A DNA stretch of 47,872 bases from Candidatus Limnocylindrales bacterium (GTDB lineage Bacteria; Chloroflexota; Limnocylindria; Limnocylindrales; CSP1-4), in assembly GCA_035699625.1 (NCBI GenBank), contig DASSPM010000008.1, forward strand, positions 1 through 47,872, in the 5' to 3' direction. The notes beneath the pieces were generated by a model. The model saw only the letters and a program-made list of their open reading frames with translations. It had not been told where the DNA came from and did not search any database. Each line of letters opens with the position of its first letter. The stretch's first letter is position 1. The position numbers and the translations under genes were made by a program. Of this stretch, positions 14,968 to 21,046 are shown piece after piece.

Positions 14968-16071
14968 TCAGCGCCGCCTCGGCCGCGGCGCCAGGAGGAG
15001 CGGCACACCCGGCCCGACGAGCGTGTGGCCGCCGAGCAGGATGGGCAGGTCGGCGCGCTCGGCGGCGCTGCGCGTGAGCGCGGCCAGCCAGGCATCCCGC
15101 ACGCCGTCGGGCCGCAGCAGGTCGCTGCCGAAGCGGTCCTCGGGGGGCGGCCAGGCCGACTCGTCGGCGCCGAGCCGGTCGGCCAGGAGGACGCGCGAGT
15201 CGATGATGGCGCCGTCGGCCAGTTCGGCCACCGCGGCCCCCAGCGCTGCCGGCCCGCCGCGGGCGTCGAGCAGCCGGCCCAGGCTCGCGCGCGGCGGCCT
15301 GGCTCTGGGGAGGGTGGTCTCCGCGGGCCGGCCGCCGATGGCCAGCGGGCTCGAAGCACGCAGGCCGCGCTCCTCGGCCAGGAAGCGCACGCGGCAGCGC
15401 ACGTTCCGCTCCAGCCAGCGCAGCGTGGCCGCGGACGAGCGGCCGAAGAGGAGCAGCTCGCGGCGCGGATCGGCCGCCAGCGCCCGCAGCTCGTCGGCGC
15501 GCGGCACGGCCAGCCCCTCGGTGCGAGCGAGGCGGCGCAGGGGCGCCGGCGCCGTCGGGGCCAGCGCCAGCAGGGCGATGTCGAGCGGCGAGTCGAGGTC
15601 GAGGGCCAGGCGCCTCCGCCCGGGCAGCTCGGCGACCGTGAAGCCGGCCCGCTCCTCGAGCCAGCGCGGCAGGGCGTTATCGCTGGGCAGCGGCGGCACG
15701 TCGCGCAGGACGGCCGCGGCCGCCACGGCGCAGACGTCCGAGGAGTGGCGGTTGTTGGTCAGGGCGCGGCGCCCCGTGCCGCCGGCGGCCGCCAGCAGGC
15801 GCTGCGCGTCGCCAGGGGAGAGGCGCGCCACCGCGCCGGCACCGAGCAGGACCAGGCCACCGCGCAGGCGCCCGGCGGCGTCGGCCAGCCACTCGCCGAA
15901 GGTGGCGCGCAGCTCAGGCTCGAGAACCGCCACGCGCGTCGCTCCCGCGGCCCGGAAGAGCTGGTCGTGGTGCTCGGCCAGCAGCGAGCGCGCGTGCGCG
16001 AGCAGCTGCGTCAGCGGACCGTCCCCTGGCGCCGCCGGGCGGTGCAGGATGATGACGTCGACGTCGGGCAT
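14968..16071 (-). CDS. Hypothetical protein, possible CofC-like nucleotidyltransferase fold
   Basis: 367 aa ORF with GC-biased codon usage; TNNRHSSD, LPSDNALPRWL, and LDLDSPLDI resembling the DxDTxxDL motif of CofC/GT-A proteins. Confidence 0.5.
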   Translation of the reverse strand: MPDVDVIILHRPAAPGDGPLTQLLAHARSLLAEHHDQLFRAAGATRVAVLEPELRATFGEWLADAAGRLRGGLVLLGAGAVARLSPGDAQRLLAAAGGTGRRALTNNRHSSDVCAVAAAAVLRDVPPLPSDNALPRWLEERAGFTVAELPGRRRLALDLDSPLDIALLALAPTAPAPLRRLARTEGLAVPRADELRALAADPRRELLLFGRSSAATLRWLERNVRCRVRFLAEERGLRASSPLAIGGRPAETTLPRARPPRASLGRLLDARGGPAALGAAVAELADGAIIDSRVLLADRLGADESAWPPPEDRFGSDLLRPDGVRDAWLAALTRSAAERADLPILLGGHTLVGPGVPLLLAPRPRRR

Positions 16072-16099: not shown

Positions 16100-16702
16100 G
16101 TGGGCGGACGGGTGCGCGCCTACATCGGGCTGGGCGCCAACGTGGGCGACGCGCCGGCCACGCTGGCCGCGGCGGTGCACGCCCTGGCGGCGCTGCCGGG
16201 CGTGCGCCTGCGGGGAGTCTCGCCGCTCTACCGCACGCGGCCGGTCGGAGTGACCGACCAGCCCGACTTCCACAACGCGGTGGTCGCCCTGGACGTCCCC
16301 GCCGGGCCCGACCCGGCCACCGGCGCGCTGGCGCTGCTGCTCGCGCTGAAGGGCCTCGAGGCCGCCTTCGGGCGGCGCGAGCGAGGGCGCTGGGGCCCGC
16401 GCGAGCTCGACCTCGACCTGCTCGTCTTCGGACGCCACCGGCTGCGCGTCGAGCGGCCGCCCGCGGCGCGCAGCGCCGACCCGATGCGGCCATCCGTGCA
16501 GTGGCTCGAGGTGCCACATCCCGCCGCGCGGGACCGGCTCTTCGTGCTCGCCCCACTGGCCGACCTGGCGCCCGGCCTGCGTCCTCCCGGCTGGGGCGAG
16601 AACGTCGCCTCGGCGCGGGCCCGCCAGGAGTCCGTGGCGGGCGCCAGCGCGGCGGCTCGCGTCGGGGAGTGGCGACCGTTGGGCTGGCGGATGTCCGCCT
16701 GA
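16100..16702 (+). CDS. folK: 2-amino-4-hydroxy-6-hydroxymethyldihydropteridine diphosphokinase
   Basis: AYIGLGANVG, YRTRPVG..DQPDFHNAV, RWGPRELDLDLL, VPHP..RDRLFVLAPL. Confidence 0.93.
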   Translation: MGGRVRAYIGLGANVGDAPATLAAAVHALAALPGVRLRGVSPLYRTRPVGVTDQPDFHNAVVALDVPAGPDPATGALALLLALKGLEAAFGRRERGRWGPRELDLDLLVFGRHRLRVERPPAARSADPMRPSVQWLEVPHPAARDRLFVLAPLADLAPGLRPPGWGENVASARARQESVAGASAAARVGEWRPLGWRMSA

Positions 16703-16854: not shown

Positions 16855-17196
16855 TCAGCGATACCGGTTCAGGACGAGGATCCGACCATCCACGGCCGCG
16901 CCGTGAGCCGCAGCCACGTTGCCGACGGCGGTCGCGATGTCGGCATAGGTCATGTCGCGCCGCGGGTCGTTGTCCCGGTACACCAGGAGCAGTCCCACAT
17001 GCTGCGCCGAGGCTCGAGCCAGTGGCTCGAAGTCCACGGCATTGCCGGTCAGCACGACCCCCGCCTGCCGCTGCGCGAACGCCCACACCTCTGCGTCGCC
17101 GGTCCCGGGCTCAGGGTCGACGACTTCGTGCCCGCCTGCCAGGAGGCGGCTCCGTAGCTCCTTGCTGCGGAGGTTCTCGTCAAGGCAGAGCCGCAA
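16855..17196 (-). CDS. DUF5615-type PIN-like protein (putative toxin)
   Basis: 113 aa; LDENL, DAEVWAFA...VLTGNAVDF, HVGLLLV; overlaps the end of the upstream gene. Confidence 0.75.
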   Translation of the reverse strand: MRLCLDENLRSKELRSRLLAGGHEVVDPEPGTGDAEVWAFAQRQAGVVLTGNAVDFEPLARASAQHVGLLLVYRDNDPRRDMTYADIATAVGNVAAAHGAAVDGRILVLNRYR

Positions 17197-17710
17197 CGCT
17201 CCGCTCGTATCGCTGGGCGACGATCCGGTTCTCGGCTTCCTCGGCCGCGATCAGGTCCCTGGCCGCCTCGGCGTAGCGCTGTGCCTCGATGACCGCCTCC
17301 AGCGGCAGCTCGTACTCGACGGCGGCCTCTTCGGGCGTCCACCGTTCGATCTCGATCGTGCGCGCCAGATCGCCGGCGGTCAGATTCCGGCCCTTGATCC
17401 AGAGCTGGCGCCGCCAGGGGTGGTCGCGCCGGACGAGCCAGACCCAGTCGCCTTCCGGGCGTGGCAGGCCGGCGATCAGGGGCTCTTCATAGCCGTCGGG
17501 AAGACGGTCCGCGTCGACCGCGATGACGCGTTTGCCACGCTGAAGGGCGTCGAGCACCCAGCGAAACGTCTCGAGGCTGGCTGAGACCGCATCGCTGAGG
17601 ACGCCGCGGTAGTAGAGCGCGGCGACCTGCCGAACGTGCAGGTCGGTCGACTCCGGCACATCCGCGGTGATGCGGTGCCGCGGACGGGCTGTTGGCTTCG
17701 GTGAGGCCAT
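17180..17710 (-). CDS. Putative antitoxin: RHH-like N-terminus + DUF433-like HTH domain
   Basis: From MASPKP (ATG 17710); RITADVP...SDAVSASL (RHH-like); HPWRRQLWIKGRNL...TPEEAAVEYELPLEAVIEAQRY (DUF433-like); directly upstream of the PIN gene. Confidence 0.65.
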   Translation of the reverse strand: MASPKPTARPRHRITADVPESTDLHVRQVAALYYRGVLSDAVSASLETFRWVLDALQRGKRVIAVDADRLPDGYEEPLIAGLPRPEGDWVWLVRRDHPWRRQLWIKGRNLTAGDLARTIEIERWTPEEAAVEYELPLEAVIEAQRYAEAARDLIAAEEAENRIVAQRYERSVAALP

Positions 17711-17716
17711 GTCTTC

Positions 17717-17745
17717 ATTCTGGTGACAGATCGTCACCACGTCAA
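17717..17745 (-). promoter_or_regulatory. Promoter TTGACG-N17-CAGAAT with a 7-bp inverted repeat in the spacer; likely leaderless TA transcript
   Basis: -35 at 17745-17740, -10 at 17722-17717, only 6 nt to the ATG; TGGTGAC-agatc-GTCACCA at 17721-17739. Confidence 0.7.
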
Positions 17746-17771: not shown

Positions 17772-18746
17772 TTACAGGCGCACCCGCGGCGGGCTCTCGC
17801 GGTCGAACATGTGGACCGTGTCGATGAAGCGCACCTGCTTGGTCTGGTAGGCCATCACCAGCGAGTGCGTGCGGGCGCCGCCGCCGAAGAAGCGCACGCC
17901 GTGCAGCAGGTCGCCGTCGGTCACGCCGGTGGCGGAGAAGACGAGCGACTCGCCGGGCGCCAGGTCCTCGGTGCGGAAGATGCGCTCGGGGTCGGTGTGG
18001 CCCATGCGCGCCGCGCGCTCGCGCTCCTCGTCGTTGCGGAAGCGGAAGCGGGCCTGGATCTCGCCGCCCAGGCAGCGCAGCGCGGCCGCCGCCAGGACGC
18101 CCTCCGGGGCGCCTCCCGTGCCCATCACGGCGTGCACGCCGGTGCCCGAGACGGCGCAGCTGATGGCCGCCGAGAGGTCGCCGTCGCTGATCAGCTTGAT
18201 GCGCGCACCGGCATCGCGCACCTCGCCGATGAGCTGCTCGTGGCGCGGCCGGTCGAGGATGATGACGGTGATGTCGTTGGGCTTGCGTCCGAGCGCGGCA
18301 GCGATGCGCTGCACGTTCTCTGCCGGCGACAGGCGGATGTCCACCTGGCCGGCCACGACCGGTCCGACGCAGAGCTTCTCGAGGTAGGTATCGGGCGCGT
18401 TCATCAGGCCGCCTCGCTCCGAGGCCGCCAGCACGGTGATGGCGTTGGCCTGGCCCTTGGCCACCAGGTTGGTCCCCTCCAGGGGGTCCACGGCGATGTC
18501 CACCTCGACCTGGCCGTCGCGCCGCTGCCCGACCTGCTCGCCGATGAAGAGCATCGGCGCCTCGTCCCGCTCGCCCTCGCCGATGACGATGGTGCCGTTC
18601 ATCTCGACCTCGTCCATGGCCGCGCGCATCGCCTCGACGGCGTCGCGGTCTGCGGCCATGTTGTCGCCGCGGCCCATGCGCCGCGAGCAGGCCAGGGCGG
18701 CGGCTTCGGTGATGCGCACCATCTCGAGCGCGAGGAGCTGCTCCAT
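17772..18746 (-). CDS. glpX: Fructose-1,6-bisphosphatase class II
   Basis: Start MEQLL after AGGAGG; EAAAL...GRGD..AAD, VIGEGERDEAPML, DIAVDPLEGT, DGDLS, GGAPEGVLAAAA. Confidence 0.95.
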   Translation of the reverse strand: MEQLLALEMVRITEAAALACSRRMGRGDNMAADRDAVEAMRAAMDEVEMNGTIVIGEGERDEAPMLFIGEQVGQRRDGQVEVDIAVDPLEGTNLVAKGQANAITVLAASERGGLMNAPDTYLEKLCVGPVVAGQVDIRLSPAENVQRIAAALGRKPNDITVIILDRPRHEQLIGEVRDAGARIKLISDGDLSAAISCAVSGTGVHAVMGTGGAPEGVLAAAALRCLGGEIQARFRFRNDEERERAARMGHTDPERIFRTEDLAPGESLVFSATGVTDGDLLHGVRFFGGGARTHSLVMAYQTKQVRFIDTVHMFDRESPPRVRL

Positions 18747-18828
18747 CGGGCCTCCTGGGATGTCGCTGCGGCGCTGGGCCACGCCGGTTGGCCGATCGGT
18801 CATCGGGCGACGCCGCTCACAGCGCGGC

Positions 18829-20376
18829 TCAGTGCCGGAAGTGCCGGCGGCCGGTGAAGACCATGGCCATGTGGTGGCGATCGGCGACCTCGATGGCCAT
18901 GCTGTCGCGGCGTGAGCCGCCGGGCTGGATGATGGCCGTCACGCCGCGCTCGGCGGCGAGCTGGATGGCGTCGGCGAAAGGGAAGTAGGCGTCCGAGGCG
19001 AGGCAGCTGAGCTTGGCCCGGTCGGCTGCCCGGTGGAGGGCGATCTCGGTCGCCACGAGGCGGCTGGCCTGGCCGGCGCCGACGCCCACGATGGCCATGT
19101 TGCGCACCAGCACGACGGCATTGCTGCTGACGTGTCGGACCGCCCGCCAGGCAAAGAGCATGTCGGTCAGCTCCTCCAGGTTCGGGCGCCGCTGGGTGAC
19201 GACCTGCAGCTGCGCCCGGTCGACCTCGCTGGTGTCGAGCGTCTCGACCAGCAGGCCGCCGCTGATGCGCTTGAAGTCGAGCCGGGCGATGCCGTAGTCG
19301 ACCAGGCCGTCGGTCGGCGAGGGCGGCACCGTGAGCACCAGCAGGTCGGGCCTGGTCGTCAGCAGGGCGCGCGCCGCGTCGCTCACGCCGGGCGCCACGA
19401 CGGCCTCGTAGGCGCCCACCACGATGGCCTCGGCGGTCGCTTCGTCGAGCTCGGCGTTGAGCCCGATGGTGGCGCCGAAGGCGGTGGCCGGATCGCACTC
19501 GTAGGCGCGCTGGAAGGCCTCGTAGATGGAGTCGCCCGAGGCGAGCCCGACCGGGTTGGTGCGCTTGACGATGGTCACCGTCGGCTTGGTGAAGTCGGTC
19601 GCGATGCGGAAGGCGGCGTCCATGTCGAGGAGGTCGTTGAAGGTGGGCGGCTCGCCCTGCAGCTGGGTCGAGTCGGCCAGCGAGCCCGAGCGATGGGTCG
19701 TCTCGCGGTAGAAGGCGGCCTGCTGCTGCGGGTTCTCGCCGTAGCGCAGGTCGGTCAGCTTCTCGAGCGACATGGTCAGCCGGTCCGGGAAGCGGGCGTT
19801 GCTGATGTGGTTGAGGTAGCCGGCCACCTCGGCGTTGTAGGCGGCGACCATGGCGAAGGCGTCCGAGGCGAGCTGCTGGCGGAACTCGGGCGTGACCAGG
19901 CCGTGCTCGCGCAGCTCGGCCACCAGGCGCGGGTAGTGCGAGGGGTCGCACACGGCGGCCACGCCGGCGAAGTTGCGCGCGGCCGCCGAGAGGAGGGCCA
20001 CGCCGCCCACGTCGATCATCTCGATGGCCTCGTCGATGGGCACCACGCGCGCTCCCACCTGGGGGGCGAAGGGGCGCACGTTGACGACCACGATGTCCAG
20101 CAGGCCGATGTCCTGATCGGCCAGCTCGGCCAGCTGGTCGGGCCGGTCGCGGCGGGCCAGGATGCCGGCGTAGACGGCGGGGTGGAAGGTCTTGACCTGG
20201 CCGCCGACGAGGTGCGGCACGTTGGTCAGGGCGGTCACCGGCGCGACCTCGATGCCCTCTGCCGCGAGCGCCTCGCGGGTCCCGTCGGTGGCGAAGATCT
20301 CGATGCCGAGGCCCAGCAGCTCGCGCGCCAGGTCGCCGATCCCGTCGCGCTTGGCGACCGAGAGCAGGGCTCGCAA
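18829..20376 (-). CDS. purH: PurH-like AICAR formyltransferase/IMP cyclohydrolase, divergent active sites
   Basis: 515 aa; VKTFHP..GILARRD, IDVGG, LRYGENPQQ, ASDAYFPF.D, IIQPGGS, FTGRRHFRH. Confidence 0.88.
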   Translation of the reverse strand: MRALLSVAKRDGIGDLARELLGLGIEIFATDGTREALAAEGIEVAPVTALTNVPHLVGGQVKTFHPAVYAGILARRDRPDQLAELADQDIGLLDIVVVNVRPFAPQVGARVVPIDEAIEMIDVGGVALLSAAARNFAGVAAVCDPSHYPRLVAELREHGLVTPEFRQQLASDAFAMVAAYNAEVAGYLNHISNARFPDRLTMSLEKLTDLRYGENPQQQAAFYRETTHRSGSLADSTQLQGEPPTFNDLLDMDAAFRIATDFTKPTVTIVKRTNPVGLASGDSIYEAFQRAYECDPATAFGATIGLNAELDEATAEAIVVGAYEAVVAPGVSDAARALLTTRPDLLVLTVPPSPTDGLVDYGIARLDFKRISGGLLVETLDTSEVDRAQLQVVTQRRPNLEELTDMLFAWRAVRHVSSNAVVLVRNMAIVGVGAGQASRLVATEIALHRAADRAKLSCLASDAYFPFADAIQLAAERGVTAIIQPGGSRRDSMAIEVADRHHMAMVFTGRRHFRH

Positions 20377-20446
20377 CAGGGACTCCCTCCGTCCCTCGGC
20401 AGCGGGAAGATCCCCCGTGGGCCGGGGCGCACCGAGGCTGGCGGCG

Positions 20447-20455
20447 AGTATAGCA
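20447..20455 (-). promoter_or_regulatory. Extended -10 (TGCTATACT) upstream of purH-like gene
   Basis: TGn-TATACT about 70 nt upstream of the TTG start; the identical 9-mer precedes csoR (39331-39339). Confidence 0.6.
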
Positions 20456-20587: not shown

Positions 20588-21046
20588 GTGACGCGCCCGC
20601 CCTGGGAATACCTCTTCGTCGCCTTCAGCCCCGGCGAGATCCGCGGCGTCTCGCAGCCCGGCTTCCCGGACCTCTTCACGCCGCTCTGGGTGGCCTCGCT
20701 GGCGCTGCTCGTGGTGCAGGTCGTCATCTACAACGTGCGCACCCGGCAGCTGCGCCGCTTCGAGCCCCTGGTGACGATGCAGGAGTGGCTCCTCTGGACC
20801 GGCCTCATCACCTTCTTCATGGTCATCGTCGAGGCCGTCTTCAACTGGTACTTCATCTTCGTCGTGATCACCCTCGGCCTGGGGCTGGCGGCCTACGTCT
20901 GGGTCCGCTTCGTGCGTTTCCCGCCGCTCATCGAGGTCTACAACGAACGGCTCCGCCGGGCACGCTTCTTCAGCCAGGAGAAGTACAAGCACCCCGAGGC
21001 GACCATCCGCCCCGGCCGCACGAAGCGCCGGCGCCGGCGGCGCTGA
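20588..21046 (+). CDS. Hypothetical membrane protein (about 3 TM, poly-Arg C-terminus)
   Basis: GAGGAG RBS, TATCCT -10-like hexamer at 20546, three hydrophobic segments, strong GC3 bias. Confidence 0.8.
   Translation: MTRPPWEYLFVAFSPGEIRGVSQPGFPDLFTPLWVASLALLVVQVVIYNVRTRQLRRFEPLVTMQEWLLWTGLITFFMVIVEAVFNWYFIFVVITLGLGLAAYVWVRFVRFPPLIEVYNERLRRARFFSQEKYKHPEATIRPGRTKRRRRRR

Follow-up and report, generated by a model that had tools for sequence, protein, structure and literature searches.

Native purH of the Limnocylindria, altered at its catalytic residues and conserved beside a PurN-PurH fusion

The window, the whole 47,872-nt stretch of DNA analysed here, comes from a Candidatus Limnocylindrales bacterium (assembly GCA_035699625.1, contig DASSPM010000008.1) and encodes a full-length homologue of bifunctional PurH whose catalytic motifs are altered. 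Why is such a protein kept? We lean towards the view that this PurH is catalytically disabled and is retained for a non-PurH role, which would rely on its conserved C-terminal, folate-side half. All genomes compared were metagenome-assembled genomes (MAGs). The class-wide PurH search covered 151 genomes, in which the window's family is f1 (CSP1-4-like); the other families are called f2, f3 and f4.

The gene has an intact reading frame of 515 codons without internal stops, as an earlier note made from the sequence had stated. Its product shows the two-domain architecture of PurH (~510 aa), in which an MGS-like inosine monophosphate (IMP) cyclohydrolase domain (IMPCH) is joined to a 5-aminoimidazole-4-carboxamide ribonucleotide (AICAR) transformylase domain (AICARFT).

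18829..20376, minus strand: divergent purH gene, 515 aa, TTG start at 20376-20374, stop at 18831-18829
19807..20376, minus strand: IMP-cyclohydrolase (MGS-like) N-terminal domain, residues 1-190, catalytic set altered
18832..19806, minus strand: AICAR-transformylase-fold region, residues 191-515, its C-terminal 115 residues the most constrained

The Pfam search matched PF02142 (MGS-like) at residues 14-126 with 47 bits and PF01808 (AICARFT_IMPCHas) at residues 132-448 with 318 bits. The window PurH aligned end to end with Mycobacterium tuberculosis PurH (3zzm; ~43% identity, E 3e-98), and Campylobacter jejuni PurH (4ehi) likewise aligned over its full length. Because of the 43% full-length identity to solved PurHs, the predicted PurH fold is not in doubt. 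The protein scored 572.5 bits with NCBIfam NF002049, over the cut-off of 402, and 508.8 bits with the stricter equivalog TIGR00355, under the cut-off of 528. The functional f4 orthologue and the canonical second copy described below exceeded both cut-offs.

Residue numbers are given in human ATIC numbering, anchored on the alignment to avian ATIC (1g8m). The alignment to 3zzm, 4ehi and 1g8m bore out all the motif substitutions that the earlier note had listed. In the window PurH, SVSDK reads SVAKR (6-10), STGGT reads ATDGT (29-33), VNLYPF reads VNVRPF (98-103), RAAAKN reads SAAARN (130-135), SYNN reads TFND (245-248) and KHxNPCG reads KRTNPVG (271-277). The codons at the main positions of the window PurH are as follows.

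20199-20197, minus strand: Arg64 replaced by Gln60
20076-20074, minus strand: Tyr104 replaced by Arg101
19977-19975, minus strand: Lys137 replaced by Arg134
19746-19744, minus strand: Arg207 retained as Arg211, lost in most of its sublineage
19563-19561, minus strand: His267 replaced by Arg272
19551-19549, minus strand: Cys of NPCG replaced by Val276

Following the published structural and mutagenesis literature on ATIC, we take Lys66, Tyr104, Asp125 and Lys137 to be the IMPCH catalytic residues. This set is incomplete in the window PurH, which retains Lys66 (Lys62) and Asp125 (Asp122) and has Tyr104 and Lys137 replaced. Lys266 and His267 form the AICARFT catalytic pair, with His267 as the general base. 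The dyad is broken in the window PurH: Lys266 is retained (Lys271), and the Arg codon reported earlier in place of the transformylase His was confirmed at 19561-19563. The residues assumed to bind the phosphate and carboxamide of AICAR (Arg207, Tyr208, Asn431, Arg451, Arg588 and Phe590) are all present, as R211, Y212, N419, R439, R511 and F513.

The changes were counted in 93 distinct f1 orthologues and in a background of 143 diverse full-length PurH representatives. Tyr104 was found in 0/93 f1 orthologues (K66, R16, A6, S3, Q1, T1) against 140/143 diverse PurHs. Position 137 was Arg in 93/93 and Lys in 142/143, respectively, and position 64 was Gln in 88/93 and Arg in 141/143. The Arg of RAAAKN was present in 0/93 against 142/143. 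The AICARFT positions varied within f1: position 267 was H in 60, Q in 13, R in 12 and G in 8 orthologues (His in 143/143 diverse PurHs), and Arg207 was kept in 55/93 (137/143). Two unrelated PurH representatives (P0021 and P0140) carried Tyr104 to Lys/Arg with the other catalytic positions canonical.

Not every substitution in the earlier list is a defect. ATDGT and the change of SYNN to [ST]FN both occur in the sole, catalytically intact PurHs of f3 and f4, and judged by this distribution they are lineage traits of functional enzymes. The Cys of NPCG is also dispensable as a mark of activity, with Ala at this place in the active avian ATIC. The change of His to Arg is real in the window; it is not clade-wide (H/Q/R/G), and the loss is confined to one sublineage.

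The divergent clade retained 94 of the 123 columns that are invariant in 40 functional PurHs, and the 29 columns lost included all catalytic positions. Asn431, Ser450, Arg451, the Tyr, Pro, Phe and Asp of ASDAYFPF.D, Ser565 and Arg588 were invariant in all orthologues; in window numbering, the invariant residues include Asn419, Ser438, Arg439, Asp462, Asp469, Ser488 and Arg511. Lys266 was present in 95/100 sequences. The IMPCH pocket retained Lys66, Thr67, Asp125 and Asn138, with the positive charge shifted from Arg64 to position 104. There were 26 positions newly fixed (at least 95%) in the divergent clade and free in functional PurHs, and these clustered in the loops 225-235 (E225, T226, H228, R229 and D235) and 351-366.

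A second purH was looked for, as the earlier note had advised, and a canonical copy was found in the window's assembly (2.41 Mb, 170 contigs, 87% complete). It lies on contig C77, scored 655.6 bits, higher than the window PurH, and has all motifs canonical (SVSDK, STGGT, VNLYPF, RAAAKN, SYNN and KHTNPCG).

680-2902 of contig C77 (genome G000), plus strand: purN-purH fusion, 741-aa open reading frame (ORF) with Formyl_trans_N, MGS and AICARFT domains, behind purM

Relatives with long contigs showed the gene cluster purF-purM-purN/H. By this linkage to pur genes, the copy of the de novo pathway is the fusion on C77 and not the window PurH; the window gene is thus not the only purH, since a higher-scoring one stands behind purM. 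The two-copy pattern was seen across f1 in 23/24 other genera sampled and 41/44 other genomes, and both copies were present on a single-contig chromosome of 3.68 Mb (G020). This co-occurrence across f1, including G020, means that the two-copy state is not a binning artefact. In the fusion, a single polypeptide carries the two folate-dependent transformylases of purine synthesis. Its fused frame was open in all 21 f1 loci examined. The three domains were also found in over 120 protein clusters from metagenomes (681-784 aa), which, where named, were called only 'PurH'.

Which of the two copies is native? The best 80 loci related to the window PurH in GTDB species genomes were all in Chloroflexota MAGs (Limnocylindrales, Limnocylindria or CSP1-4), at 66-76% identity. 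A representative library of 1.84 billion proteins held one full-length close match (68%, 741 bits), and the next match reached 467 bits at 47%. Because there is one close representative and the next is far weaker, the divergent PurH forms a tight, taxonomically confined clade. The f3 and f4 genomes nearly always had one PurH. This sole PurH was 47-59% identical to the window PurH, and the canonical f1 copy 40-44%. The sole PurHs of f3 and f4 retained KH.NPCG, VNLYPF, RAAAKN, GGRVKTLHP and LRYGENPHQ, and shared ATDGT, SFNN, ASDAYFPF and TGRRHF[KR]H with the window PurH.

The maximum-likelihood tree under posterior mean site frequencies (PMSF) joined the divergent f1 copies and f2 at 100/100, then f4, then f3, and grouped the canonical f1 copies with outside references. 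A tree of 205 sequences showed the native lineage as monophyletic (0.95) and the canonical clade as sister to M. tuberculosis PurH (0.96), with 26 other lineages separating it from the native one. The order of the locus, with the gene of a 152-aa membrane protein, purH, glpX and folK, was identical in f4, where purH is the sole copy, and in the window; f2 has its copy at this locus too, with glpX missing.

20588..21046, plus strand: predicted membrane protein of 152 aa with a poly-Arg C-terminus and no Pfam match, divergently transcribed
17772..18803, minus strand: glpX, class II fructose-1,6-bisphosphatase (PF03320, 450 bits), 25 nt downstream and co-oriented
16100..16702, plus strand: folK (HPPK), which marks the conserved locus; in f2 it stands tail-to-tail with the remnant of PurH

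Families f1, f2 and f4 all have the 152-aa membrane protein gene paired with native purH, a marker of positional orthology. From the tree placement and the conserved locus shared with f4 and f2, the window gene is the vertically inherited native purH of the class Limnocylindria, and the canonical fusion is a xenologue. A duplication within the class was rejected because the canonical copy falls with outside PurHs in the trees. The first indication for the donor of the fusion is an actinobacterial affinity. The earlier proposal of a pseudoenzyme or neofunctionalised paralogue is therefore fair as to the lost near-invariant catalytic positions, but the trees and the locus show that the window PurH is not a derived paralogue. 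The adjacency of glpX was considered as a functional clue and rejected, as f4 has the same purH-glpX pair with an intact PurH, and the pair is ancestral synteny. Two conserved ORFs of the window had no Pfam match, at 17180-17740 (minus strand, 186 aa) and 14968-16071 (minus strand, 367 aa).

The divergent f1 copies fell into two sublineages. In sublineage A (37 sequences, the window included), His267 was R/Q/G in 34/37 and Arg207 was P/A/S/E in 33/37, and the C-terminal, AICAR-contacting Phe590 and His592 started to vary. Sublineage B (63 sequences) kept Lys-His in 61/63 and Arg207 in 55/63, with N274D and I452Q fixed. His267 and Arg207 were lost together (Fisher p 3.6e-12, with the kinship of the sequences ignored). 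The several replacement residues at each of these two sites are the signature of relaxed constraint. Tyr104 of the IMPCH set was absent from A and B alike. With Tyr104 absent in both sublineages and the AICAR-site loss in A, the residue pattern indicates that the cyclohydrolase set was lost earlier, on the stem of f1 and f2, and the AICAR half-site later, in sublineage A.

The ratio of nonsynonymous to synonymous substitution (dN/dS, omega), which the earlier note had named as a check, was 0.016-0.086 for pairs of closely related orthologues of the window PurH (dS 0.09-0.4), indicating purifying selection. Across independent pairs, the pooled omega was 0.17 overall, with 0.20 in the IMPCH domain, 0.17 in residues 191-400 and 0.12 in residues 401-515. 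The IMPCH domain ranged over 0.20-0.26 in both selection analyses. Sublineage A had an omega of 0.23 overall, and its relaxation was confined to the middle region with the AICAR site (0.26 vs 0.15 in B); the C-terminal 115 residues stood at approximately 0.10 in both sublineages. In 17 genomes with both copies, dN of the divergent copy was 0.86 times that of the canonical copy. Divergence of the native and canonical copies ran in parallel within f1 (Mantel r 0.78, 0/5000 permutations), indicating long coexistence. The frame was unbroken in all of the approximately 100 orthologues examined, and altogether more than a hundred genomes have kept the gene. A pseudogene was rejected on account of the low omega and the universally intact frame. 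Loss of catalytic residues and purifying selection, the features of a pseudoenzyme, are both found in the window PurH.

The native gene has also been kept where the purine pathway is missing. purM, purF and hisF were absent from 9/9 f2 genomes (1.0-1.4 Mb, ~90% complete); therefore neither known source of AICAR is present in f2, which is probably auxotrophic for purines and histidine as judged by gene content. These genomes retained a 460-aa descendant of native PurH with the motif IRHTDPIG. Its N-domain had no Pfam MGS match and kept 5/44 invariant columns, and its C-terminal half kept 54/79. The f2 loci are L044-L052 and L133-L136 (genomes G025-G040). K266R, N274D and the absence of Arg207 are common to the f2 proteins and the f1 group L014/L090/L104. 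In the tree, f2 adjoins L014 at weak support, and f2 may have arisen within f1.

The f4 genus g39 (L146, L147 and L149, including the single-contig genome G120) was likewise without purM, purF and hisF. Its native PurH was retained with a decayed IMPCH domain (VNLAPP, AAAAN). Another member of g39, G166 (L148, C7:1147713-1159320), carried a purF-purM-purN/H cluster with its PurH nested in the canonical f1 clade, which suggests transfer of the cluster; its purM was split in two pieces by a frameshift or an assembly error. The retention of the protein in two sets of auxotrophs argues that the native protein, chiefly its C-terminal half, does something besides making IMP.

These results can be arranged in the following scheme. 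The analyses show orthology, displacement by a xenologue, catalytic residues lost in steps, persisting purifying selection, and retention where the pathway is missing. The xenologous PurN-PurH fusion in the purF-purM-purN/H cluster has taken over the purine job in f1. The native copy, once freed, first lost the IMPCH set (Tyr104, Lys137 and Arg64), and sublineage A then lost the AICAR half-site (His267 and Arg207). What was retained is the full two-domain fold with the folate-side residues Asp546, Pro543, Phe544, Ser565 and Lys266, plus Asn431, Arg451 and Arg588. From the residues lost, we infer that the window PurH most likely catalyses neither PurH reaction. Our best guess for the retained function, which is speculative, is non-catalytic binding of a ligand (folate or nucleotide) or a structural dimer, and this second role may already have been present in the native enzyme before displacement. 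A ligand-binding or structural dimer fits best because the folate-side pocket is conserved, Asn431, Arg451 and Arg588 are invariant, the C-terminus is hyper-conserved and no catalytic residue has been newly fixed.

Several points weigh against this interpretation. The Tyr104 change alone may not abolish cyclohydrolase activity, since two otherwise canonical PurHs carry it; either Tyr is not strictly required, or P0021 and P0140 would be cyclohydrolase-impaired PurHs of other lineages too. Since sublineage B keeps Lys-His and Arg207, it may still carry out chemistry of the transformylase type, which weakens a purely non-catalytic ancestral second role. The residues invariant in all PurHs could serve folding and not ligand binding. 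The conserved positions specific to the native lineage are for the most part hydrophobic and could belong to the protein core; taken as an interaction surface, they were a weak candidate and were set aside. Neither the domains of the window PurH nor the conserved locus revealed a partner, a regulator domain or an informative neighbour. The absence of purF, purM and hisF was read from MAG bins that are ~90% complete, yet it was consistent in 9/9 f2 genomes and one single-contig genome.

The main rival to a ligand-binding or structural dimer is a new enzymatic activity, which we consider possible, though unlikely. The pockets would have been remodelled for another reaction, such as the folate-dependent transfer of a formyl group to a different acceptor, or a reaction that hydrolyses or interconverts a formyl-folate or a related nucleotide. 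This would account for the clustering of the 26 newly fixed positions in two loops, for the invariant folate-side residues with Lys266 in nearly all sequences, and for an IMPCH pocket that keeps Lys66, Thr67, Asp125 and Asn138 while its positive charge has moved to position 104. However, neither position 267 (H/Q/R/G) nor position 104 (K/R/A/S/T/Q) has acquired a fixed catalytic residue, f2 does not share the newly fixed loop residues, and no co-localised pathway genes were found at the locus.

The second role of native PurH may be non-enzymatic, that of a structural or ligand-gated dimer, conceivably involved in translation control as in the archaeal case described below. On this view, the role would have kept the protein under selection after its enzymatic function had disappeared three times or more, in sublineage A of f1, in the streamlined f2 and in the f4 genus g39. 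The window protein would then be a purely moonlighting form without catalysis, a natural separation-of-function variant. We hold this idea tentatively and on the unlikely side.

It is quite unlikely that the window PurH is a ligand sensor, as the earlier note had proposed, or a regulatory subunit, which would bind ZMP, IMP or folate and modulate another protein, possibly the PurN-PurH fusion via hetero-oligomerisation. Binding-type residues are indeed conserved without a conserved catalytic base, and pseudoenzyme paralogues that regulate active relatives are a known pattern. But f2 and g39 keep the protein without a canonical PurH or a purine pathway to regulate. There is no output domain or conserved partner gene, and the window has no ZTP or other riboswitch (Rfam at gathering thresholds gave 0 matches across the whole window).

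Very doubtful is a working PurH isozyme, with redundant or condition-specific AICARFT and/or cyclohydrolase activity, for instance in recycling histidine-derived AICAR. The score above the NF002049 equivalog cut-off, the retention of most substrate-binding residues, the Lys-His dyad and Arg207 of sublineage B, and hisF, which is present in the window's genome as a second AICAR source, speak for it. On the other side, His267, universal elsewhere (143/143), is Arg in the window and R/Q/G in its sublineage, and all orthologues lack Tyr104 and have Lys137 replaced. The protein does not reach the TIGR00355 cut-off and scores ~90 bits less than its functional f4 orthologue, and even genomes devoid of purF, purM and hisF have kept it.

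Most improbable of all is a decaying relic, a slow pseudogene without function: the catalytic residues were lost stepwise and the N-domain decayed further in f2, but the frame is intact in ~100 orthologues, omega is 0.02-0.09 in close pairs and 0.23 in the window's sublineage, the rate is below that of the essential canonical copy, the gene is kept in streamlined genomes of 1.0-1.4 Mb, and the ribosome-binding site and codon usage described next are maintained.

The upstream signals of the gene are of unequal strength.

20383..20390, minus strand: Shine-Dalgarno sequence GGAGGGAG, strong, 6 nt before the TTG start
20447..20455, minus strand: extended -10-like element TGCTATACT, a possible promoter element, weakly supported

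The Shine-Dalgarno core was found upstream of 98/98 orthologues. The GC content at third codon positions of the window PurH was 0.97, comparable to that of glpX and clpB, in line with the normal codon bias reported earlier. The 'good promoter' was the weakest claim of the earlier note: a sigma-70 consensus scan upstream of the window PurH found no promoter site, and only 31/98 orthologues had a motif similar to the extended -10-like element in the 160 nt next to the start.

In NCBI and IMG, the window PurH and its many orthologues carry the plain name 'bifunctional PurH'. Metabolic reconstructions built on these names would assign the final two steps of purine synthesis to purine-auxotrophic lineages such as f2, and a pair of PurH isozymes to f1. 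The Limnocylindria are an abundant class of soil and freshwater Chloroflexota. In the literature on PurH paralogues and on purine auxotrophy of Limnocylindria, nothing was found on a catalytically degenerate PurH in this class. The case is a clean, well-replicated displacement by a xenologue, after which the native gene was not deleted but became a conserved, probable pseudoenzyme. Its stages can be ordered, from IMPCH loss through AICAR-site loss to N-domain decay. Retention in genomes of 1.0-1.4 Mb without a known AICAR source points to an undiscovered role of the PurH fold, and the question is timely, as an archaeal PurH was recently found moonlighting on the ribosome.

Bifunctional PurH (3ZZM, 4EHI) has the same two domains over its full length, and the window protein keeps 94 of the 123 universally invariant positions. 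Unlike bifunctional PurH, it lacks Tyr104, Lys137, Arg64 and His267, is not the pathway-linked copy and falls under the TIGR00355 cut-off. The sole PurHs of f3 and f4 are true orthologues, with the same clade and lineage motifs and a nearly identical C-terminus, and f4 also shares the locus. The f4 PurH has all catalytic residues and scores 661 and 587 bits with the two equivalog models, against 572 and 509 bits for the window PurH, in which catalytic residues are lost.

The PurH of Methanosarcina acetivorans, with its active sites empty, forms a ribosome-dimerisation factor with aEF2, as seen by cryo-electron microscopy (PMC12605026). The methanogen factor is a PurH2-aEF2 2 heterotetramer (PMC12605026; probably PDB 9OU7), and 9ou7 was the third-best PDB match of the window PurH. 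The M. acetivorans PurH is catalytically competent and essential for purine biosynthesis, whereas the window protein appears to have lost catalysis and has no ribosome link. This case proves that a structural second role is possible for the PurH fold, which is a precedent and not evidence for the window protein. PurV and PurJ of archaea (PMC6486802) and ForH of formycin biosynthesis (PDB 6NKO) are, like the window PurH, PurH domains outside the standard bifunctional role. These are single-domain, active enzymes, whereas the window PurH has the full length and carries changes in both active sites.

Pseudoenzyme paralogues kept after gene displacement are a general class, for example the 'prozymes' of trypanosomatids. 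Prozyme-like pseudoenzymes and the window PurH have in common the loss of catalytic residues and strong purifying selection. Unlike prozymes, the window PurH gives no sign of partnering an active enzyme, and its lineage persists in f2 and g39 without any active homologue.

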